Source: Octopus vulgaris (taxonomy: Eukaryota). From it: a stretch of DNA of 64,000 nt. The notes beneath the pieces were generated by a model that was not told the origin of the DNA, ran no database searches, and was given only the letters and a program-made list of their open reading frames with translations. The DNA is taken from the NCBI GenBank assembly GCA_951406725.2, contig OX597829.1, forward strand, positions 24,614,001-24,678,000, read 5' to 3'. Below, one piece after another: positions 3,361 to 61,970 of the stretch; positions within the stretch are counted from its first letter, which is position 1; each line of letters begins with the position of its first letter. The translations under genes and the position numbers were made by a program.

Positions 3361-4537
3361 AAGAATGAAATATAAAAATTCTTTTTATTCTTGCTCAAGT
3401 GTTTTAATATCTTGAATTTTTTGAATTCTTCATTTCTATGCACTTTTTTCATGTGTTTTTACACCATTTCAAACCATGTGTTGCCTGTTAATTTTGACCA
3501 GTCTTTTGCACCTATGTTGCCATTTTGTTTACAAAAATACAAAACAATCATATTAACCTTCCTCCACCACACTTGACCTCCCTCTGTCTTATTTCCTTCC
3601 TCCACGTCTTGAACCACTCTTCCTATCTGGCATACATTACATATCTCTTCCACCTATATGTGTGTGTGTGTGCGTGTGTCTCTATCTATCTATATTTTTC
3701 TAAAAGTAAGTAATGTACTGATATTACCATTGCATGTACAATGAAAGTTTTATAACTTTCATACCTTCTCTAACTACTCTTTCAATTTTTTCATCCTTTC
3801 CTTTTCTTACAAACGATCTCTTTCATTCCTTTTCCTGTCTCATCGCACTTGCTCTATAACAAATTTACTTCTCCTAAATATAACTATATAGCTCCTCTAC
3901 AACAAGAACCTGCTTATCCATCCTTCTTCCATAAAGCCGATCTATGTTTTGTTGTCTTGTGAGCTGCATGGCAACTTCACTAAAGCAGAGGGTTCAAAAA
4001 AAAAAAAAAAACATTCACTACATGCTACTAAGTGGTTGGTGATAAACAGGACATCCAGTCATAGAAATCATGCCTAAATAGACAACAGAGCACAATGCAG
4101 TTCTTGGACAATATTCAATGGATACTGTCAAACCGTCTAACCCATGCGAACATGAAATAAGGACATTAAATGATGAAGATGATATATTTATTTGCATATT
4201 TTATTTTTAATTTTATTGTTGACACAGTCACAGTTTCTTAAACTCTAAAATAGATTTGCCTAGGTTTGGCAACAAAAATTGTAACTATTTCCCCTCATCA
4301 AGACAGAACAGCCTTGATTTTATGATACAAACTTCCAGTTGCAAAGCAATCTAAATTAAAGCCTTCCACCAACATTCCATGTCAGTTTATGTTCCAAACA
4401 GCAACTAAATAAAGACAAAGATATTTTACTAAATTCTTCATTTTCAAAATTTCTTAAAATAAAGGCAGTTTATTTAAACAGAAATATCCTAGTCATATGA
4501 TTTAGCCGCCAGATCTTTCCATCAAGTCTATGAGAAG

Positions 4538-6384: not shown

Positions 6385-7990
6385 CAGTCACTAAAGAAAC
6401 TGGATGTAGACAAATAGCTTGTGAAAGCTGTACAAGCCATATATGAAGACACGGTAAAGTAAGAATCACTAGCAATTTCAGTGATTAATTTAGCATGAAA
6501 TTAGTCCATTAAAGCATAATCCTCAATCCTCTTCTATTCATTATTGTCCGGCAGACCATGTCAGTGGAATTTATAACTGATTATATTTGATAACCCTTAT
6601 ATGTTGATGATATCAAAATAGATGAACATCAATGGAATTTGTATCTTTGTGGTACCAGTGCCGGTGCACACAAGAAAACCATTCAAACGTGGCCGTAGCC
6701 AGTACCGCATCGACTGGCCTCCGTGCTGTGGGCACGTAACAAACACCATCCGATTGTGGCCGTTCACCAGCCTCATCTGGCACCTGTGTCGGTGGCACAT
6801 AAAAAACACCATCCGAGCGTGGCCGTTCACCAGCCTCATCTGGCACCTGTGTCGGTGGCACATAAAAAACACCATCCGAGCGTGGCCGTTCGCCAGCCTC
6901 ATCTGGCACCTGTGTCGGTGGCACATAAAAAACACCAGCCGAGCGTGGCCGTTCGCCAGCCTCGTCTGGCACCTGTGTCGGTAACACATAAAATCACCCA
7001 CTACACTCTCGGAGTGGTTGGCGTTAGGAAGGGCATCCAGCTGTAGAAACACTGCCAGATCTGACTGGCCTGGTGCAGCCTTCGGGCTCCCCAGACCCCA
7101 GTTGAACCGTCCAACACATGCTAGCATGGAAAGCGGACGTTAAATGATGATGATGATGATCTGGTTCACAAAGTTGGATCTGCAGGAAAATTAGAGAGGA
7201 AATTCTAAGCATGGAAACTAACCCTTGAGTCAACAGGTTGTAAAGTAAACTTAACAAAGACTAAGTTTTTAGTGAGTAGGAAAGACACAACCCTGATATC
7301 TTCAAGGAAATGTCCTTGCTCAATATGTAGAAAAGGACTATGTATAAACTCTATATGTTCTACCCAATGTAAACTACGGACACAGAGGAAATATAATGGA
7401 ATGTCAGGGAACTTCATATATGACAGATGCACTGGAACAATATACACAATGAGCCCACCAGAAGTAGACTCCCTTAGATGCCTGGATGACTTACTAAAAG
7501 TGTGATACCCAAGAAATGTAATAAGCAGGAGAGGTGGTGGCTTCAAAACTATAGTAGTAGCCAGAAGAAACCACTTCCACTACTGGTAACAAAGGTCTTT
7601 TCCCACAGTGTGAAAAGTAGACAGAATGATTGATGCCTGTGTTAGAATTGCAATACTGCAGGGTAGTGAGACATAGGCCTTAAAAGGAAGGGAAAGAAAT
7701 AAAACAAGGATGTTTTGTTGTGAAATGCAAGTGTGCAAATGTGCAGTGAGAAAAACTGGGAATAAGAGGAATTAAATGTAGCATGCAAGAAAAAAGACTG
7801 TGCTGGTACTGACATGACATGAACACAAATGAGGACAGTTGTATGAAGAAGTGCCAATGACTTAATGAAAATAGAACTTCTGGAAGAGGAAGATCCAGAA
7901 GGACATGGCACAAAGTGATGAAGGCTGGTCTCAGGATCTTGAACTTTATGGAGGAGATAAATAACCAATATGACTGGCAATATGCAATAT
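6385..7990 (+). mobile_element. Old degraded RTE LINE (RT to C-terminus), interrupted by a younger RTE
   Basis: RT remnants ending at YVDD (6600-6611) resume at 7161 and are followed by the CSIC...CTQC zinc finger. Confidence 0.75.
6612..7160 (+). mobile_element. Young RTE 3' end with 4 x 63-bp tandem unit
   Basis: 63-bp periodicity (CACC at 6744, 6807, 6870, 6933), the conserved 3' motif and a (GAT)n tail. Confidence 0.9.
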
Positions 7991-16145: not shown

Positions 16146-19000
16146 GGGAAAGATGGCTGCTTATAAATGCCAAAACCTTCCCAGGCGAAGAATGTACCCC
16201 ACAACATAGACTGGTAGTTAGTGACTTCAGGATCAGGGCTAAGTGGATGACTAGCATGGAGGAGAAGGGTCTGGAAGCTTAAAGATCTTGCGAATGGACA
16301 GAGTTTTAGAGACTTATTACTCAAAGCCATTGACGAAATAGAAGGGGATATAGCTTCACACGATGTAGAAGACAACTGGAGGTTTCTACAGGACAACCTG
16401 TTGAGGGCCACCGACCAGATCTGTGGTTGGTGCAAAGTCCCCTCTCAACCCAAAATAACGTGGTGGTGGAACAATGTTGTTGACAGGGCTATTAGAGAAA
16501 AGAAACAGGCTTGGAAGAACAGTGGTGGCAGGGAATTGTATCAGACTGCCAGAAGGGAAGCTAGGAGACAAGTTTATTTTAGCCAGAGGGGAAGTAGATA
16601 AGAAAAAGTTTGCTAATGTTCTGTACTGTGAGGACCAAAGACTTTAGGTATTTCGTGTTGCAAGACAGCGTGTGAGAGAGAATTGTGATGCTGTAGGAGA
16701 GAAATGTGTTCGCATGTATGATGTTTCTCTTGCACTAAACAAGGCTGCAAAGAGAGAGGTCTGGAGACGCCACTATAAAAGGTTGCTCAATAAAGAAAAT
16801 GAATAGGAGATAGAGAGTCTGTCGAATGTCAAACCAGCTATCCGAGTTGACAATACCTTGGTAGGTAAAGCAATTAAGAGTATGAAGACTCCAGTCCATC
16901 AGGAATTACTGCAGAGATGCTTAAAATATCTGGCAGTGTCAGCTATAGCCTAGTCACCCATATAGTTAACCAGGTGATACACAAAGGTGTCATACCCAAT
17001 GACTGGTGTAGCAGCACTATAGTCAACTGCTAAAAAGGTAAAGGTGACACTTTAGATACAAATAATTACAGAGGTATCAAGTTGTTGGATTAGGTAATGA
17101 AGGTTACGGAGAGGGTCATAGCCCAAGTAATTAAGGAGGGAGTCAGTTTAGATGAGATGCAGTTTGGGTTCGTGCCAGGAAAAAGCACCACTGATGCTAT
17201 ATTTCTGGTAAGACAGTTGCAGGAGAAATACCTAGCCAAAGATAAACCTCTGTACCTAGCTTTCGTTGACATCTGGTGGTCAATGAGGAAACTAGGGATA
17301 GATGAATGGTTAGTGAGAGATGTGCAAGCCATGTACAGGGACACCGTCAGTAAGGTGAGGGTTGGCAACAAGTACAATGAAGAATTCTGGGTAGAAGTAG
17401 GGTTCCACCAAGGTTCAGTCCACAGCCCCCTCTTATTTATCATAGTCCTCCAGGCAATAAAAAAGGAATTCAAGACAGGATGCCCCTGGGAGCTTCTCTA
17501 TGCTGACGACCTTGCTCTAATTGCTGAGTCACTATCAGAACTAGAGGAGAAGTTTCAGGTGTGGAAACAAGGATTAGAATAGAAGGTCCTAAGAGTCAAC
17601 CTAGCTAAAACCAAAGTCCTAATAAGTAGGAAGGCAGGCAAACCACAAATCCCTTCAGGTAGATGGCCCAGCTTGATCTGTAGAAAAGGCGTTGGTAGAA
17701 ACTCCATAAGATGTACCCAGTGAAAGCTATGGACACATAAGAGGTACAGCAATATCAAAGGAAGGCAAACTGGGAAGATAGTTTTTGTATGTGGCAGATG
17801 CTCAGGAGCAATTAACACTGAAAATGTGCAGAGAACAACTTCCGCCACATTCCAAGGAGAAAAACTAGAAGTAGTTGATAGCTTCCATTACCTAGGTGAC
17901 CAAGTCAGTAGCGGGGGAGGGTGTGCTGAAAGTGTAGCTGCTAGAATAAGAATAGCCTGGGCTAAGTTCAGAGAGCTCTTACCTCTGCTGGTGACAAAAG
18001 GCCTCTCGCTCAGAATAAAAGGCAGACTGTATGATGCATGTGTATGAACAGCCATGCTACGTGGCAGTGAAACATGGGCCATGACTGCCAAGGACATGCG
18101 TAAGCTCACAAGGAATGAAGCCAGTATGCTCCAATGGATGTGTAATGTCCGTGTGCATACATGACAGTGTGTAAGTACCTTGAGAGAGAAGTTGGACCTA
18201 AGCAGTATCAGATGTGATGTGCAAGAGAGATGATTGCGCTGGTAAGGGCATGTGGTGAGAATGGATGAACTGTGGGAAAAAGTACCATACTCTAGCAGTT
18301 TGAGGGAACCTGTGGAAGAGGAAGACCTGGGATAAAGTGGTGAAGCATGACCTTCGAACATTAGGCCTCACCAAGGCAATGACTAGTGACCGAGACTTGG
18401 AAATATGCTGTGCTTGAGAAAACCCAGCAAACCAAGTGAGACCATAACCTCGTGGCCTATGCCAGGGATGTAACCAGCCCACTTATATAATGAGTACCTT
18501 TCCTTCATTGGACATGAAACTCTGCTTGCAAAGACCTGTTGAGGCAAGTGAAATCAAATTCGATGACTGGCATCCATGCTAGTGGAGTGCTAAGAACACA
18601 TCAGAGCGTGATCGTTGTCAAAGCAGCAAACTAGCTTCCGTACCAGTGGCACATAAAAAGCACTATTCGAGCATGATCGTTGCCTGCGTCGCCTTACTGG
18701 CACCTGCGCTGGTGGCATGTGAAAAGACATTCAAGTAAGGTCATTGCCAGTGCTGCTGGACTGGCTCCTGTGCAGGTGGCATGTAAAAAACTCCATTTGA
18801 ATGTAACCATTGCCAGTACTGCCCTCGTGCCAGGGGCACATAAAAGCACTCACTACACTCTCGGAGTGGTTGGCGTTAGGAAGGGCATCTCCAGCTGTAG
18901 AAACTCTGCCAGATCAAGATTAGAGCCTGATGCAGCCATCTGGTTTGCCAATCTTGAGTCAAATCATCCAACCCATGCTAGCATGGAAAGCAGATGTTAG
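16146..19000 (+). mobile_element. 5'-truncated RTE LINE (APE end, RT, PHD-like finger, repeat-containing 3' UTR), inactivated
   Basis: PQHRLVVSDF (APE end), QFGFVPGKSTTDAIF, HQGSVHSPLLF and ELLYADDLAL. Contains several stops and frameshifts. Confidence 0.95.
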
Positions 19001-19002
19001 AC

Positions 19003-19812
19003 ATAACCTTCATTACCTGATCCAACATCTTGATACCTCTGTAATTATTTGTATTGAAAGCATCACCTTTACTTTTGTAGCAGTTGACTATTATGCTGCT
19101 ACATAAGTCATTAGGTATGACTCCTTCATGTATCACCTGGTTAACTATACGGGTGACTATGCTATAGCCGACACTACCAGATATTTTAAGCATCTCTGCA
19201 GTAATTCCTGATGGGCTGAGGGCTTTCCCTGTCTTCATACTTTTAATTGCTTTATCTACCAAGGTACTATCAACTTGGATAGCTGGTTCCTCTGTTGAGT
19301 CGACATTCAGCAGACTCTCTTTCTCCCATTCATTTTCTTTATTGAGCAACCTTTCATAGTGGCGTCTCCAAACCTCTCTCTTTGCAGCCTTGTTTAGTGC
19401 AAGAGAAACATCATCCATGCGAACACATTTCTCTCCTACAACATCACAATTCTCTCTCACACTGTCTTGCAACACGAAATACCTCAAGTTTTTGGTCCTC
19501 ACGGTACAGAACATTGACCAATTTTTTCCCATCTACTTCCCATCTGGCTAAATAAACCTGCCTCCTAGCTTCCCTTCTGGCAGTCTGATACACTTCCCTG
19601 CTACCACCATTCTTCCAGTCCTTCCAAGCCTGTTTCTTTTGTCTAATAGCCCTGTCAACCACATTGTATCACCACCTCATTATTTTGGGTTGAGAGGGGA
19701 CTTTGCACCATCCACAGATCTGGTCGGTGGTCCTTAGCAGGTTGTCCCATAGGAACCTCCAGTTGTCTTCTACACCATATGAAGCTATATCCCCTTCTAT
19801 TTCGTCAAAGGC
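19003..19812 (-). mobile_element. Inverted RTE fragment (linker to RT start)
   Basis: ORF 18978-19532 (...NNYRGIKMLDQVMKV) is the reverse-complement homolog of about 16330-17105. Confidence 0.9.
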
Positions 19813-23279: not shown

Positions 23280-24772
23280 AGTAGTTTTATTTTTATAGCG
23301 TGCTTTCACTTCACTACCGAGCGCAGCTCTGTGTGCCTTGGGTATGTGCTGTGGTTTGCTGTGATGCTCTGATGGTTACTGTATTGAAAGTGTTTTGCGT
23401 AGGATGTGTGCAGTGCCTAGTAGTCCAATTTTCTGTATGTTGTATATATTTGTAAGTCCTGGTGTTTTTGTTATGTATTTGTCTGAATATTTTTTATCAT
23501 ACCTAATGTGCCCACTATGATAGGAATTGTTTCTGTTTTTAGATTCCACATTCGAGTTACCTCTATTTCCAGGTCTTTGTATTTTGAAAGTTTCTCTGTT
23601 TCTTTTAGAGAAACGTTGTCATCTGCTGGTATTGATACAGCAATCAGAAAGCATTTTTTTCTTCATGATCTCTGACAACTATATCTGGCCTATTGGCCCT
23701 AATTTATCTATCTGTGTGTATTGGAATATCCCAGAGTATGGCTGCTTTCTCGTTTTCTGTGACCTTTTTGGCATGTGCCTATACCATCTTTTTTCTGTTG
23801 TTATTCCATAGTGTTGGCATAGCTTCTAGTGTATGTAGGTCCCAGCTCTGTCGTGTTTGTGAATATATTCTTTCTTGGCCAGGACTGGGCAACCAGAGAT
23901 AATATGATTCATTGTTTCCTGTCCATCTCCACATATTCTGCAGTTACTTGTTATATTTCTTTTCATTATATGTTTTTGGTAATTTCTGGTGGGGAGGCTT
24001 TGGTCTGGTGCTGCAATTAAGAATCCCTCAGTCTCTGCTTTGAGTCCTGAGCTTCTCAACCATTGCTGGAATTTTTCTCTGTTTTTCTTTTGCATTTAGT
24101 TTAGTGCAGTATTTGCCATGATGGAGCTTTTCTTGCCATCATTTAATCATGGACCATTGCTGTTCTAGTTTTAGCTTGGATTTCATTTGTTTTATAGCTT
24201 TTGTTATTTCTTCTTCTTCTTCTTCATATTTGTTAGTAGTATGATTTTTTTTTTTTTGTATTTGTCGGCTTCCGTAAATACTGAAAACAGTTTTTTGTTT
24301 TGCTCGTGTTTTGTGGCTATTTGTATTAGTTTTCCTTATTTCTGAAGTAGGTATTTTTGCAGTCCTATGGTGGTTATTTTATGACAGTTTTCCAGCCGTA
24401 TGAGGCCTCTACCAGCTTCTATACGTTGTATATATAGCCTTTCTATGTCAGATTTTGGGTAGTGCATCCTAGATCCTGTCATTATTTTTCTTGTTTTCCT
24501 GTCTATTTTGGTCAGTTCATTTAGTGTCCAGTTAAGGATATTGTAGCTGTAACTTATAACTGGGATGGCTAAAGTGTTAATACCTATTATCTTGCTTTTA
24601 GCATTGAGCTCTGTTTTCAGTATTGATCTAACTCGTCTATAGTATTCTTTTTTTATTTTCTCTTTCATTTGTGTGTGTTGTATCGTATCTAGTTCATTGA
24701 TTCCTAAATATTTGTATGTATGTTTTTGGTCTAATTCTCTTATTTCATTGGTTTTATCTAGTGTGATGTTGC
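23280..24772 (-). mobile_element. R4/Dong-clade non-LTR retrotransposon, 3' part (RT end, CCHC knuckle, RLE)
   Basis: YKYLGI...ERLYIQRIEAGRGL and ETEGFLIAAPDQSL...CRICGDGQETMNHIISGC. Flanked by (TTA)n on both sides. Confidence 0.9.
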
Positions 24773-25103
24773 TATTCTTCTTATTATTATTATCATTATT
24801 ATTATTATCATTATCATCATCATCATTATTATTATTATTATTTTTTTTTTTTTTCCTTCTTTCTTCAAATTTTCTTCTGTTTCTCGCCAAATGTTTTCTG
24901 TACACCTAGGGCAGAGAAACTCACTGTATGCATTCCCAGATTACACATGGAAATTCACAGGTAAAATATGTATTTAAAAAATTAATAAATAAATAAATTC
25001 ATGAATGGATGTTGTTTTCACAGCGATAATGCTCTTCTCAGTACATGAGTCGTTCCAGTTAACACGATTTTTTGCACTTATTATTATTATTATTATTATT
25101 ATT

Positions 25104-25658
25104 AGTGAGTGAGAGAGCAGTGCATGCCATCAAAGTGACACTGGGGTAAAATATACGAAGCCCAGTATATCCATCATGACTACCTGTCTGATAAGGGTAC
25201 ACTAGGCACATGCATCACAACCATATGTGCATGACATGGTGATCTCATATCAAGATAAACAGCACATGACCTTGCAGGTGGGGCCCAGTTAGAATTTTCT
25301 TCTGGTCGAGTAGCCCATCCCACTCAAAAGGTCCCTGAATAAGGATTGATTAAGGATGTTGAACGAAACACCCATGTTTCCAGAGGTGAATTTTTTAAAC
25401 GCCAAAGAATCCCTCTCAACACATGGCTATGATGCTCCCCCACTACTTCTGCTCATGATCAGAGATGCACATATCAACAGCCACTAAGGGACATGCTTAA
25501 CTGGTTAAGGTCAAGCAACTGACAAGCAAATCTGTGGTATTGAGTAAAATATTTGCTGTAGCCCATCTTTTATACCAAGACAAAACAAAGTACATGATAA
25601 CACTTCCAATCAGTTAAGATCAGAAGCCATGAGAGCCACTGCCTGTACTGCATCAGGG

Positions 25659-25660
<2 letters not shown>
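25104..25660. repeat. Unclassified ~555-bp non-coding insert between (TTA)n tracts
   Basis: Sharp (TTA)n boundaries, higher GC than the flanks and no ORF. A second such insert lies at 24843-25080. Confidence 0.5.
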
Positions 25661-25698
<38 letters not shown>

Positions 25699-25700
<2 letters not shown>

Positions 25701-26600
25701 GCTACATGGCAGTGAAACATGGGCCGTGACTGCTGAGGATATGCGTAAGCTCGCAAGAAATGAAGCCAGTATGCTCCAATGGATGTGTAATGTCAGTACT
25801 CATACTCAGCAGAGTGTAAGTACCTTGAGAGAAAAGCTGGACCTAAGAAGCATCAGTTGTGGTGTGCAAGAGAGACGTTTGCGCTGGTATGGTCATGTGG
25901 CGAGAATGGATGAAGATAGTTGTGTGAAAAAGTGCCACACCCTAGCGGTTGAGGGAACCTGTGGAAGAGGCAGACCCAGGAAAACCTGGGACGAGGTGGT
26001 GAAGCACGACCTTCGAACTTTAGGTCTCACTGAGGAAATGACTAGAGACCGAAACCTCTGGAAGTGTGCTGTGCGCGAGAAGACCCGGCAGGACAAGTGA
26101 GTCCATAACCCGTGGCCTTCTACATGGGATGGAGCCAGCCTACGTATGCATACCTTCCCTTCTTGGGATACATAACTCTACTTGTGAAGACCTGTTGAGG
26201 CAAGTGAGGATCAGAATCGAAATTGATCAATGGAAATTGCAGATGTGTTACCAGTGCCGGTGGCATGTAAGAGAACCTTCCGTTTCGCGACCGTTGCCAG
26301 CACCGCCCCGTTTCGTGTCCATTGCCAGCCTCGCCTGGCCCTCGTGCCGGTGGCACATAAAAAGCACCATCCGTTCGTGGCCGTTTGCCAGCTCTGTCTG
26401 GCACCTGTGCAGGTGGCACATAAAAAGCACCCACTACACTCACGGAATGGTTGGCGTTAGGAAGAGCATCCAGCCGTAGAAACACTGCCAGATTTGACTG
26501 GGCCTGATGAAGCCTTCTGGCTTCACAGACCTCAGTAGAACCGTCCAACCCATGCTAGCATGGAAAACGGACGCTAAACGATGATGATAATGATGATGAT
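25699..26600 (+). mobile_element. Young RTE 3' fragment with intact ORF C-terminus
   Basis: MLHGSETWA...RGRPRKTWDEVVKHDL...*, UTR repeats and a (GAT)n tail. Confidence 0.93.
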
Positions 26601-27890: not shown

Positions 27891-28084
27891 CTTGTCTCTC
27901 TGTGAGACTCAGAAGCAGATCTTCATACTGGTGGTATGTAGAAAACAAAAAGCAATCTATTATAATTAAATTATCTCTGAACATCCTTATTTTCTACATT
28001 GGTGACTTTGTTGTAATTGAACAGCACAGTATATATTTGCAGGTGCATTTTGAAGCGATTGGGTAGCAAGTATCTATGAATTCC

Positions 28085-29123
28085 TTGTTTTTTATATGTT
28101 GCATATGTTAATGACATAGATGCCAACTTAAAGAATGCCACAGTGCTGAAATATGCAGATGACATCAAGCTGTACCTCAAAATAAAGAGGTCAAATCCTG
28201 TACACTATAGATCTCTATTGCAAGCAGACCTGGACACAATACAGCAGTGGATCATGGACTGGCAACTCAAGCTGGCTGTGGACAAATGTACCACCATGCA
28301 TTTTGGGAGGAGAAACCCAGCGTCCACCTACTCCCTCCACAACACTAGTCTCAAAAAGTCTTCATGTGAACATGACCTGGGTGTTATTGTTGACAGTGAT
28401 TTGCGTTGGACAAAACACATCGCTAAAATTGTCAAGAAGGCTGAGGGTGTCTTGGCATTACTCACCAAATCCTTTGTGAGCCGCTCTCTGGCTATCTATC
28501 TGCGGCTTTATATAGCTATGGTAAGACCTCACTTAGAATTTGCATCACCGGTCTGGAACCCCTATCTTGCCCAGGATATCAATCGTCTGGAAGCTGTTCA
28601 GCGACGTGCAACCAAAAGAATACCCTCCATCAGGCATTTGCCATATCCTGAACGCCTTACTTCCCTGGGCATGGATACATTGAAACTCCGACGTCTGGCA
28701 GCTGACTTGGCAGACACCCATAAAATTATCAACCATCGTACAAACAATAACTCTGAGCACCTTTTCAAACTCCACCCATCTAACACCCGTGGACATATTT
28801 ACAAAGTCAGAAAACAGCACAGCTCCCATGAATTCAGGAAACATTTTTTTCACGCTGAGAGTTGCTGAAGCATGGAACAAACTGCCAGCATCAGTTGTTA
28901 GTTGTCAGAGCACTGCATCCTTGAAAACTTCCATGCTTTCTGAGATTCACTAACACTACACCCGATTTTCTCCCCTCCTTACACACACAAGCATGTATCT
29001 GACTCATACATTGTTCGCTTTCCAGACATTTTTACATTACTGCATGTACTTTATATGCACTTTCTGACAAGTTGTGGTGCACCTGAGCACTGTATATAAT
29101 AATTTCATTATTATTATTATTAT
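28085..29123 (+). mobile_element. CR1-clade LINE 3' part (RT C-terminus)
   Basis: KYADDIKLY, HDLGVIVDSDL, VRPHLEFASPVWNP, LEAVQRRATK and TRGH, followed by an (ATT)n tail. Confidence 0.92.
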
Positions 29124-39240: not shown

Positions 39241-39595
39241 TTGACATAGCACCCACTACACTCTCGGAGTGGTTGGCGTTAGGAAGGGCATCCAGCTGTA
39301 GAAACTCTGCCAGATCAGATTGGAGCCTGGTGCAGCCATCTGGTTTGCCAGTCCACAGTCTGGAAAGTGGACGTTAAATGATGATGATAATGATATATGT
39401 GTAAATATATATATATATATATATATTAATAGTTATCACCATACTAATATGGCAGTCTATAAATATAAGACTAAAGCTGTCGCTGATTAGCTCCAAGAGG
39501 CCACCGCCTCTAGCTAGTTATATGACACACGAACCTGCGTCCATTACAACCTTCGAACAGGGGAGGTCAGCTGCTTCACCTTGCTAGTCAGACAC

Positions 39596-39636
39596 CTGCA
39601 GACATGTTTCAGGGTTGTTGCCCTTTATCAATGCAG
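39596..39636 (-). ncRNA. Minimal type-I hammerhead ribozyme, U3:A8 variant
   Basis: ctgca-TTGATAA-aggg(caacaa)ccct-GAAAC-at-GTC-tgcag. Confidence 0.8.
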
Positions 39637-39955
39637 CGTAGCCAGAACCAGCAGGTGTTGCTACTGAGCATCTGTTCGAAGATTTTATTTACCCAGTTAC
39701 AGTGGAATACATCCACTTGTTTTCAATAATAGAAATATTAAAATTACTAAGTCTCTCTAAAGGAGATTACGGCAGCGTTACTGGGTATTAATAGTTATCG
39801 CCATACTAATATGGCAGTCTATAAATAAGACTAAAGCTGTCGCTGATTAGCTCCAAGAGGCCACCGCCTCTAGCTAGCTATTTGACACACAAACCTGCAT
39901 CCATTACAACCTTCGAACAGGGGAGGTCAGCCGCTTCACCTTGCTAGTCAGACAT

Positions 39956-39996
39956 CTGCAGACATGTTTCAGTGTTGTTGCCCTTTATCAATGCAG
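39956..39996 (-). ncRNA. Second HHR copy, one helix II mismatch
   Basis: ctgca-TTGATAA-aggg(caacaa)cact-GAAAC-at-GTC-tgcag, exactly 360 nt from the first copy. Confidence 0.72.
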
Positions 39997-40077
39997 CGTA
40001 GCCAGAACCAGCAGGTGTCACTACTGACCGATGTATTCCACTGTAACTAGGTGAATAAAATCTTTGAACAGATGATT

Positions 40078-55265: not shown

Positions 55266-55310
55266 CATGTATAGATGTAAGTATGTACATATACGTATGT
55301 ATATATATAT

Positions 55311-55639
55311 AATTAATTGTTATCGCCATATTAATATGGCAGTCTTATAGATATAAGACTAAAAGCTGTTGCTGATTAGCTCCATGAGGCCATCGCCTTA
55401 AGATAGCTATTTGACACACAAACTGTGTCCATTATAACCTTCGAACAAGGGAGGTCAGCCGCTTCACACTGCCAGTCAGACAGCTACAGACGCGTTTCAG
55501 GGTATTTGCCCTTTGTCAATGTAGCGACAGCTTTTAGTCTTATATCTATAAGACTGCCATATTAATATGGCGATAACAATTAATTTCCAGTAACGCTACC
55601 GTAATCTCTTTTAGAGAGACTTAGTAATTTTAATATTTC

Positions 55640-55643
<4 letters not shown>
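55311..55643 (-). mobile_element. Second locus of the 360-nt HHR element, with inversion
   Basis: 55311-55525 is homologous to 39786-39998. 55523-55643 is an inverted copy of the region at about 39728-39844. Confidence 0.85.
55483..55525 (-). ncRNA. Minimal type-I hammerhead ribozyme, U3:A8 variant, sense to the RAD6 pre-mRNA
   Basis: gctaca-TTGACAA-aggg(caaata)ccct-GAAAC-gc-GTC-tgtagc. Confidence 0.82.
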
Positions 55644-55683
<40 letters not shown>

Positions 55684-56743: not shown

Positions 56744-58351
56744 TTATCATCATCATCATCGTTTAACGTCCGGTCTTATCTGGCAATGTTTCTACAGCTG
56801 GATGCCCTTCCTAACGCCAACCACTCCGTGAGTGTAGTGGGTGCTTTTTACGTGCCACCTGCACTGGTGCCAGGTGAGGCTGGCATCAGCCACGGTCGGA
56901 TTGGTGCATTTTACGTGCCACCGGCATGGAAGCCAGTCGAGGCGGCACTGGCTTCAGCCACGATCCGGATGTGCTTTTTATGTGCCACCGACACGGAAGC
57001 CAGTCGAGGCGGCGCTGGCATCGGCCACGATTTGGATAGTGCTTTTTCATATCTCCAGTCCAGGGGTCCTGGCATCTGCTGGGTGCCAGTCATAGGATTG
57101 GTTCAATTTCGATTTCGATTTCGATTTCACTTGCCCCAACAGGTCTTCGCAAGCAAAGGGGGGTTGGCATAGGTGCCTGTCGCCGGATGAGGTTCGATAT
57201 CGACTTCGCTTGCCTCAACAGGTCTTTGTGTGTCCAAGGGAGGAAAGGCATGCATAAGTGGGCTGGACTCACTTGTCCTGCCTGGTCTTTTCACGCACAG
57301 CATATTTCCAAAGGTCTCGGTCGCTGGTCATTTCCTCAGTGAGACCTAAAGTTTGAAGGTCGTGCTTCACCACCTTGTCCCAGGTTTTCCTGGGTCTACC
57401 TCTTCCACGGGTTCCCTCCACTGCTAGGGATTGGCAGGTAGAGGCCACGGGTTATGGCCTCACTAGTCTTGCCGGGTCTTCTCACACACAGCATACTTCC
57501 ATAGGTCTCGGTCTCTAGTCATTTCCTTGGTGAGACCTAAAGTTCGAAGGTCGGGCTTCACCACCTCGTCCCAGGTTTTCCTGGGTCTACCTCTTCAACA
57601 GGTTCTCTCAACTGCTAGGGTGTAGCACTTTTGTACACAACTATCTTCAGCCATTCTCATCACATGACCATACCAGTGTAGACATCTCTCTTGCACACCA
57701 CAACTGATGCTTCTTAGGTTCAACTTTTCTCTCAAGGTACTTACATTCTGTCGATTATGAACACTGACATTACACATCCATCGGAGCATACTGTCTTCAT
57801 TTCTTGCGAGCTTACGCATATCCTCAGCAGTCACGGCCCATGTTTCACTACCATGTAGCATGGCTGTACATACACATGCATCATGCAGTCTGCCTTTTAC
57901 TCTGAGCAAGAGGCCTTTTGTCACCAGCAGGGGTAAGAGCTCTCTAACTTTGCCCAGGCTATTCTTACTCTAGCAGTTACACTTTCAGCACACCCACCCC
58001 CGCTACTGACTTGGTCATGTAGATAGCGGAAGCTATTCAACTACTTCTAGTTTGTCTCCCTGGAACGTGGTAGAAGTTGGTCTCTGCACATTTCCAGTGT
58101 TTATTGCTCCTGAGCATCTGCCACAGACAAAAACTATTTTCCTAGTTAGCCTTCCTTTGACATTGCTGCACCTCTTATGTGTCCATAGCTTACACTTGGT
58201 GCACCTTATAGAGTTTCTACCTACACCTTTTTTACAGATCGAGCAGGGCCATCTACCTGAAGTCGTTTGTGATTGGTCCACCTTCCTACTTATTAGGACT
58301 TTGGTTTTGGCTAGGTTGATTCTAAGGCCCTTCGATTCTAATCCTTGTTTC
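56741..58351 (-). mobile_element. Two abutting RTE 3' fragments (junction at about 57437)
   Basis: The ORF end occurs twice in different variants. WKQGLESKGLRINLAKTK, the PHD-like finger and LHGSETWA are present. Confidence 0.9.
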
Positions 58352-59136: not shown

Positions 59137-60272
59137 TCATCATCATCATCATCATTTAGCATCCGCTTTCCATGCTAGCATGGGTTGGACGGTTCAACTG
59201 GGGTCTGTAAAGCCAGAAGGCTGCATCAGTCCCAGTCTGATCTGGCAGTGTTTCTACGGCTGGATGCCCTTCCTAACGCCAACCACACCGTGAGTGTAGT
59301 GGGTGCTTTTTACGTGCCACCCGCACAGGTGCCAGATGGAGCTGGCAAACGGCCACGGACGGATGGTGCTTTTTACGTGCCACTGGCACGGGGGCCAGGC
59401 GAGGCTAGCAGCGGCCACGATCGGATGGTGCTTTTTACGTGCCAAGGCATGGCTGTTTGCTTAAGAAGTTCAGGACTTCACTCTGGAACTAGGCATCTGG
59501 TTCCATCATGTGGAAGCAGCTGATGTTCTATACAACAGCTATGGGTATCAACATCATTATCATCATCGTTTAACGTCCGTTTTCCGCGCTAGCACGGGTT
59601 GGATGGTTCGACCGGGGTCTGGGAAGCCAGGGGCTGCACCAGGCTCCAGTCTGATCTGGCAGTGTTTCTACAGCTGGATGCTCTTCCTAACGCAACCACT
59701 CCGCGAGTTTAGTGGGTGCTTTTTACGTGCCACCGGCACAGGTGCCAGGGGAGTCTGGCATCGGCTACGATCAGTTGGTGCTTTTAATGTGCCACCGGCA
59801 CAGAAGCCAGTCAAGGCAGCGCTGGCATCGGCTACATTCGGATGGTGCTTTTTATGTTCCACCGGCACAGAAGCCAGTCAAGGCAGCGCTGGCATCAGCT
59901 ACATTCGGATGGTGCTTTTTATGTTCCACCGGCACAGAAGCCAGTCAAGGCAGCGCTGGCATCGGCTACATTCGGATGGTGCTTTTTATGTTCCACTGGC
60001 ACAGAAGCCAGTCAAGGCAGCGCTGGCATCGGCTACATTCGGATGGTGCTTTTTATGTTCCACCGGCACAGAAGCCAGTCAAGGCAGCGCTGGCATTGGC
60101 TACATTCGGATGGTGCTTTTTATGTTCCACTGACACAGAAGCCAGTCAAGGCAGCGCTGGCATCGGCTACATTCGGATGGTGCTTTTTATGTTCCACCGG
60201 CACAGAAGCCAGTCGAGGCGACGCTGGCATCGGCCATATTCGGATGGTGCTTTTTATGTGCCACTGGCACAG
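59137..60272 (-). mobile_element. Two RTE 3' ends; the second has a 67-bp tandem array (about 7.5 copies, 59775-60270)
   Basis: GGATGG recurs at 59840, 59907, 59974, 60041, 60108, 60175 and 60242. Confidence 0.92.
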
Positions 60273-61574: not shown

Positions 61575-61970
61575 GTAAAAAGCACTATTTGAGCATGGTC
61601 GATACCAGTCCCACTGAACTGGCTCCCATGCAAGTGGCATGTAAAATGCACCATGGGAATGTGATCAATGCCGCCTGACTGGTCCTGTGCTGGTGGCACA
61701 TAAAAAGCACCATTCAAGCACGATCATTGCCAGTATTACCTGACTGGTTCTTGTGCCGGTGGCATGTAACGAACACCATTTGAGCATGGTCAATGCCAGT
61801 ACTGCCTGACTAGCCCGTGCTGGTAGCACATAAAAAGCACCCACAACACTCTCAGAGTAGTTGCTGTTAGGAAGAGCATCCAGCTGTAGAAACCTTGCCA
61901 GTCCTGAGTCAAACCATCCAACTCATGCTAGCATGGAAAGTAGACATTAAATGATGATGATGATGATGAT
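61575..61970 (+). mobile_element. RTE 3' UTR repeats and tail
   Basis: GTGGCACATAAAAAGCACC units and a (GAT)n tail. Confidence 0.85.

Follow-up and report, generated by a model that had tools for sequence, protein, structure and literature searches.

The window, a stretch of 64,000 nucleotides from Octopus vulgaris (contig OX597829.1, positions 24,614,001 to 24,678,000), includes two loci that hold copies of one non-coding repeat. Their features are given below with the subfamily (F0 to F7) to which they belong; the hammerhead at 55.5 kb is numbered by standard hammerhead nomenclature.

39424..40027, minus strand: head-to-tail partial tandem of F1, about 1.7 units at 360-nt spacing, ending in (TA)n
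39595..39637, minus strand: F1 hammerhead, helix I CTGCA/TGCAG, loop III ACATGT
39955..39997, minus strand: another F1 hammerhead, in which one helix II pair is broken (G·A; CACT for CCCT)
40030..40074, plus strand: short piece of the element in inverted orientation, at the tandem's 5' end
55312..55526, minus strand: 5'-truncated copy of the element, unit positions 88-302, 98% identical to the F3 majority
55483..55525, minus strand: F3 type-I hammerhead
55525-55520/55488-55483, minus strand: helix I of the F3 hammerhead
55519-55513, minus strand: core U3-A9
55512-55499, minus strand: helix II with loop CAAATA
55498-55496, minus strand: GAA
55495-55490, minus strand: palindrome ACGCGT
55489, minus strand: C17, with the cut predicted between 55489 and 55488
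55523..55645, plus strand: inverted piece of the element, unit 242-362, that stops in (TA)n at the second fixed 3' end

The minus strand reads CTGCA TTGATAA AGGG CAACAA CCCT GAA ACATGT C TGCAG at 39636-39596 and CTACA TTGACAA AGGG CAAATA CCCT GAA ACGCGT C TGTAG at 55524-55484. The core common to both regions, TTGA(N)AA...GAAAC NN GTC, is that of a type-I hammerhead, and both hammerheads carry the U3-A8 core variant, a point absent from the preliminary description. All seven differences given there are present: two in helix I, one at N7 (T versus C), two in loop II and two in the helix III loop, where AT is replaced by GC and the palindrome is kept, as is the AGGG/CCCT stem. Across the 41 nt, each of these two copies is identical to its subfamily majority, and the seven differences are thus fixed between subfamilies, none being private. 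Not all differences are Watson-Crick compensatory: helix I has a sixth pair, beyond the 39.6-kb range given in that description, which is G-C at 55.5 kb, G·G at 39.6 kb and G·A in subfamily F1.

The copy at 55312..55526 starts one base before helix I and thus lacks the distal rod and most of loop 1; its 3' end is the first of the two fixed ones and lies in (TA)n. The inverted piece at 55523..55645 meets its 5' end with an overlap of 4 nt, and (TA)n lies at both outer ends of the 55.3-55.6 kb locus. Having lost most of loop 1 and having no partner in cis, the 55.5-kb copy is probably inert; the signal seen in it dates from its source copy. Elsewhere in the window, mutually related GC-rich tandem repeats of 63-67 nt lie at 59715-60272, 6731-6993, 56880-57047, 59302-59444 and 61674-61841. 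ORFs that by eye resemble non-LTR retrotransposon reverse transcriptase fragments lie at 17094-17582, 18978-19532, 24336-24905, 25633-26100 and 28080-28868.

Searches with Rfam gave no hammerhead match in the whole window (E<=1) or in 55310-55640 (E<=10), and the canonical CTGANGA pattern had 10 matches in the window, none at the 39.6-kb or 55.5-kb sites. Both approaches probably miss the motif because of its U3-A8 core and, for Rfam, its short helix III. Since Rfam misses the element, similar U3-A8 families may be under-counted.

Genome-wide, the unit is non-coding, 357-362 nt long, with a GC content of 0.417-0.460 and one type-I hammerhead. At least 2,308 copies with an intact core are found in the 2.8-Gb genome, the four helix-I patterns taken together. 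An exact pattern of core plus stem II gives 694 matches against 0 for the reversed control, so the motif is not due to chance, and a 22-nt anchor outside the ribozyme gives 1,339 matches. No longer, ORF-bearing version of the element is present among the loci looked at. In the loci found with the anchor, the 3' ends of 79 of 96 segments lie at two sites 60 nt apart, and 61 of these 79 are followed by (TA)n. The 5' ends are spread out and do not pile up at the predicted cut (2/96 at unit 125-126). Both orientations are present in 31 of 60 loci, and target-site duplications are hidden by the (TA)n found in most flanks. The features of Penelope-like insertion are thus present: fixed 3' ends with a tail, variable 5' truncation, inversion and a microsatellite target. 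In two loci (L029 and L080), a related 1.3-kb coding-like sequence (71% identical) adjoins the copy upstream, which suggests insertion at the end of another repeat.

Tandems reach 5.5 units within 3-kb loci. Units diverge by 0.56% within arrays (35 pairs) versus 3.25% between arrays (493 pairs), which fits either rolling-circle copying or local duplication; the array units look like rolling-circle products. The predicted circular fold has a z-score of -5.4 to -8.6 in all eight subfamilies (40 shuffles each). Compensatory changes also occur beyond the ribozyme, at pairs 84-134, 187-200, 215-230, 255-271 and 258-268, and the whole 360-nt unit covaries. Non-LTR retrozymes have a monomer of 170-400 nt, GC below 50%, head-to-tail tandems and a highly self-paired circle, and all of these are seen here, the circle as a prediction. 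The element is best read as a non-LTR retrozyme that likely cleaves as a dimer and is likely mobilised by a Penelope-like element (PLE).

Segments covering both the ribozyme and its flank numbered 161 of 352. Of these copies, 151 were assigned by hand to eight groups; the other 10, intermediate or without a place, were set aside. The preliminary description had recognised separate subfamilies, which they are, but had counted two where there are at least eight. A tree built from non-ribozyme columns and rooted at the midpoint gave a ladder in which the order of the three old groups is unsettled. Median decay is 5.4% in F7, 6.0% in F6, 5.8% in F0, 2.7% in F1 (the 39.6-kb type), 1.3% in F2, 2.8% in F3 (the 55.5-kb type), 1.4% in F4 and 0.7% in F5. 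The 64 copies with ACGCGT group together in a derived clade (support 0.97) that sits inside the series of ACATGT groups; of the latter, the oldest is 5.8% decayed, as against at most 2.8% for the ACGCGT groups. The change in loop III thus ran from AT to GC, a gain of CpG. The youngest subfamily, F5, also has the longest tandems, with 13 of 28 F5-assigned segments exceeding 1.2 units. Many arrays, for example L149-L153, contain the same F5 variant, whose helix II is GGGG/CTCC (one G·U).

The helix-I pair that had been reported to change from G-C to A-U does so, but by way of G·U, which is itself the commonest state. Genome-wide, the pair is G-C in 560 copies, A-U in 563, G·U in 1,170 and A·C in 15, counts in which copies of one subfamily are not independent. 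In the tree without ribozyme columns, two copies with G·U (L073 and L162) are placed between G-C and A-U subfamilies, F2 and F3, and N7 is A (subfamily F5) in 96 of 100 G·U copies among the matches listed. The 15 A·C copies sit on mixed backgrounds and none was amplified as a lineage. Source copies with G·U have thus spread, and those with A·C never did. Decay alone would give G·U and A·C in equal numbers; the 15 A·C copies are at the level expected from decay, comparable to the 18 copies with C3-A8 and none with C3-G8.

Covariation was judged by counts, shuffles and simulation. It is present across many copies at further positions: pair I.2 is C-G or U-A, pair 10.1-11.1 is G-C, G·U or A-U, and pair 10.2-11.2 is A-U or G-C. 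In 13 hand-picked copies, 98.7% of cells are paired, compared with 24-53% for slid partners. Twelve pairs compared across the eight subfamily majorities contain 19 substitutions, eight of them double changes (seven independent, as F4 and F5 share one). None of the 96 resulting pairs is broken, against a mean of 18 in simulations at flank rates (probability of no broken pair, 0.00055); pair I.6 lies outside the 12 pairs simulated. Helices I and II are thus supported by covariation with the exception of this terminal pair, G·A in F1. A G10.1-C11.1 pair is usual in canonical hammerhead motifs. Here it occurs in 3/8 subfamilies, G·U in 1/8 (F6) and A-U in 4/8, including both window types. Selection, which a comparison of just two copies could not establish, is shown by the genome-wide counts. 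These counts also support the earlier proposal that the subfamilies replicated under selection for a dimer-type hammerhead, the cleavage itself being predicted.

Between subfamilies the core does not vary. Its boxes (the 3-8 pair, G12-A13-A14, U16.1-H17, and ends joined in helix I) are found in all eight majorities, with U3-A8 as the pair. Among these majorities, 0/14 columns of core plus helix III differ versus 92/318 elsewhere (rough P 0.008), and none of the 12 unpaired catalytic positions varies; for F5 and most F7 copies, which were fetched with core-fixing patterns, this invariance is partly circular. The 98 copies retrieved with the flank anchor include no group that has a core change in common. 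Private changes, in contrast, hit the core at 9/724 sites versus 258/14091 non-CpG sites elsewhere (63 anchor-locus copies; Fisher p 0.31). The core is thus fixed between subfamilies but decays neutrally after insertion, and selection acts on source copies. Loop II does differ between the window copies as described, but it is not free: its first C is kept in 156/161 copies and its last A in 155/161. The U after helix I is kept in 158/161, and this U and the last A of loop II match a loop-loop contact of the Schistosoma hammerhead, so that a similar contact may form here.

Helix III is too short for a monomer and its loop is palindromic, as in dimer-type hammerheads. With loop III left free in the search patterns, it is palindromic in 416 of 433 copies among the matches listed (count by eye). 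The dinucleotides in use, AT, GC, TA and CG, are all four self-complementary ones, CG being a minor group (9/100 among the matches listed for one pattern). The intermediates GT and AC occur in 40 and 24 scattered copies genome-wide, with no clear wobble preference between them (32 versus 23 after dropping nine distant motifs). The same four dinucleotides rank as the top 4 of 16 for a predicted active dimer in 4/4 backgrounds. The predicted minimum free energy dimer has a shared helix III and an open core in 5/8 subfamilies; in F0-F2, which include the 39.6-kb type, its core is partly mispaired. Predicted hexamer duplexes have energies of -6.0 to -8.9 kcal/mol for like pairs and -1.6 to +0.3 for unlike pairs. 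The palindrome might thus act as a self-recognition code, whereby lineages that have switched would dimerise and cleave with themselves and poorly with older subfamilies, and competition would drive double switches. We regard this model as speculative and rather unlikely. If true, the family would amount to a mutational scan made by nature, from which it follows that retrozymes need both dimer cleavage and rolling-circle copying to be spread by a Penelope-like enzyme. In predicted monomer folds, G5-A6-N7 (within 55513-55519) pairs with the GUC before the cut (55489-55491), and the change of N7 to C came in step with the GC loop. N7 may therefore not be neutral, and its pairing could keep monomers switched off.

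We searched the genome for Penelope-like elements, scoring 150 of 6136 GIY-YIG candidates. A young, high-copy family (L121-L129, L131 and L132) has an intact ORF encoding a 781-aa RT plus GIY-YIG protein:

L121 2245-4587, plus strand: Penelope-like ORF, one example of the family, with hammerheads at 779 and 5566

Its hammerhead, with a U3-A8 core and the loop ACATGT, has a helix I that is very rich in AT; a (TA)n end follows after about 70-80 nt. The protein linker, CxxxxCxxC, is of the Neptune type as described in PMC8557442. This family is a candidate mobiliser of the element. Using blastn, the element has no match in 20 GIY-YIG loci (L101-L120) save one separate adjacent insertion in L119, and none in 12 longer stretches (L121-L132); the loci compared gave no sign of an autonomous PLE whose pLTR is homologous to the element. 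Conversely, tblastn of two PLE proteins against the element loci gave short fragments only, in two distinct loci. L130 2582-4303 (plus strand) belongs to another Penelope-like family, whose linker is different; the hammerhead pattern was not found in its 7 kb. Older, diverged U3-A8 hammerheads with other helix sequences and no blastn match to the element are seen around base 3500 of each of L214-L222; several of these loci share flanks with each other, and L221 holds two more AT-rich motifs. Nine distant U3-A8 motifs have no adjoining PLE ORF, one weak match aside. The genome thus likely holds several U3-A8 hammerhead families.

Taken together, the two stretches of the window are, with good probability, hammerheads of two subfamilies of a repeat of about 360 nt, whose paired differences were fixed in source copies that could likely be copied only by first cleaving themselves as dimers. 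In the proposed cycle, a tandem array would be transcribed, and two of its hammerheads are predicted to pair via their 6-nt palindromes into a shared helix III. As in known retrozymes, cleavage would free a monomer that is ligated into a rod-like circle. The insertion anatomy points to a Penelope-like RT/GIY-YIG protein that would nick (TA)n DNA, with RT starting internally at one of the two fixed sites and copying round the circle. Such a cycle would yield 5'-truncated, tandem and inverted insertions.

Three other explanations have to be weighed against dimer cleavage. Selection may act on the shape of the RNA, a rod with a three-way junction that serves a retrotransposon protein or stability, the hammerhead being carried along as a fold. 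Compensatory changes all along the unit, the absence of a build-up of 5' ends at the cut and the finding that hammerhead mutants leave PLE insertion in vitro unblocked (PMC11167929) are in its favour. It leaves the invariance of the unpaired catalytic positions unexplained, as well as the restriction of C3 to scattered copies that lack G8; moreover, a self-complementary 2-nt loop is useless in a monomer fold, yet all four have been chosen. We consider this explanation improbable. Still less probable is that each paired change was made at once, and without selection, when reverse transcription switched template (quasi-palindrome correction). The element does often switch template, as the loci with both orientations indicate, and no loop III intermediate survives as a subfamily, but the loop III palindrome is just 6 nt long and templated repair cannot keep unpaired core or loop residues. 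Single-change G·U states were amplified as subfamilies, both at the helix-I pair and at 10.1-11.1 in F6, and A·C never was; this asymmetry largely refutes template switching.

The least credible explanation is neutral drift or independent CpG decay, with ACGCGT turning into ACATGT. Formally, ACATGT is the double CpG-decay product of ACGCGT, and the single products exist, but decay products amount to tens of copies in a family of over 2,300. The direction is wrong, as the ACGCGT clade is derived and the oldest ACATGT group is more decayed than any ACGCGT group; the changes in helix I and at N7 lie outside CpG. CpG decay was therefore rejected on direction, context and counts. Selection for self-cleavage as a dimer remains the reading that we favour.

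The phenomenon itself is already published, with regard to retrozymes of this kind, the U3-A8 variant and family-level covariation (PMC4209133, PMC7229834). U3-A8 cores, a palindromic loop 3, action as a dimer and families with compensatory changes are reported in PMC4209133, non-LTR retrozymes are defined in PMC7229834, and retrozymes are tied to PLEs in bioRxiv 2026.07.22.740005. Searches of the literature on hammerheads, retrozymes, Penelope elements and cephalopods found no account of the present family or of a dated series of subfamilies of this kind; Repbase, Dfam and the supplements of papers may list the family. The evidence of selection in this family is unusually clear, and comes from within one genome: the successive sources all passed a filter for an intact core, helices open to wobble pairs and a loop III that is self-complementary, and copies decay freely once inserted. 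The family also links a retrozyme in detail to PLE-type insertion, and its very young subfamily F5 offers natural variants ready for bench work. These results bear on whether PLE and retrozyme hammerheads are needed for spread. The function of PLE hammerheads is called unclear by Craig et al. 2021 (PMC8557442), and catalytic mutants of an anole PLE did not impair insertion in vitro according to Frangieh et al. 2024 (PMC11167929). In bioRxiv 2026.07.22.740005, cleavage is reported to be absent from 8 of 9 retrozyme dimers of Xenopus.

The element resembles several known systems, here compared as the cited papers present them. With Neptune-type PLEs (PMC8557442, PMC11167929) it shares 5' truncation, partial tandems, an inverted 5' piece, an optional tail between two fixed 3' ends and AT-rich or (TA)n targets. 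It differs from them in having no ORF, a tail of 60 nt versus 30-40 and no sequence match to the PLE loci examined. Compared with the minimal hammerheads associated with PLEs (PMC4209133), the ribozyme has canonical helix sizes, loop-loop residues and no extra base at the foot of helix II, and it belongs to a non-coding element, not to the pLTR of an ORF-bearing PLE. The likeness to the Schistosoma Sm-alpha hammerhead (PMC2632901) concerns the ribozyme. It includes loop II CAAAUA in 4/8 subfamilies, U-R-C before helix I, the U after it and the 3' A of loop II, with a putative tertiary contact; the U3-A8 core is different. Animal non-LTR retrozymes (PMC7229834) differ in having C3-G8 in place of U3-A8, and A-U at 10.1-11.1 in half of the subfamilies sets the present element apart. 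It is mostly found as dispersed insertions of 0.5-2 units with PLE-type tails and inversions, not as long satellites. It shares with these retrozymes a non-coding tandem monomer (357-362 nt here, about 350-390 nt in mussel), a GC content of 42-46%, a highly self-paired predicted circle and coexisting PLEs, together with a type-I hammerhead that has a 6-bp helix I, a 4-bp helix II and a short palindromic helix III.
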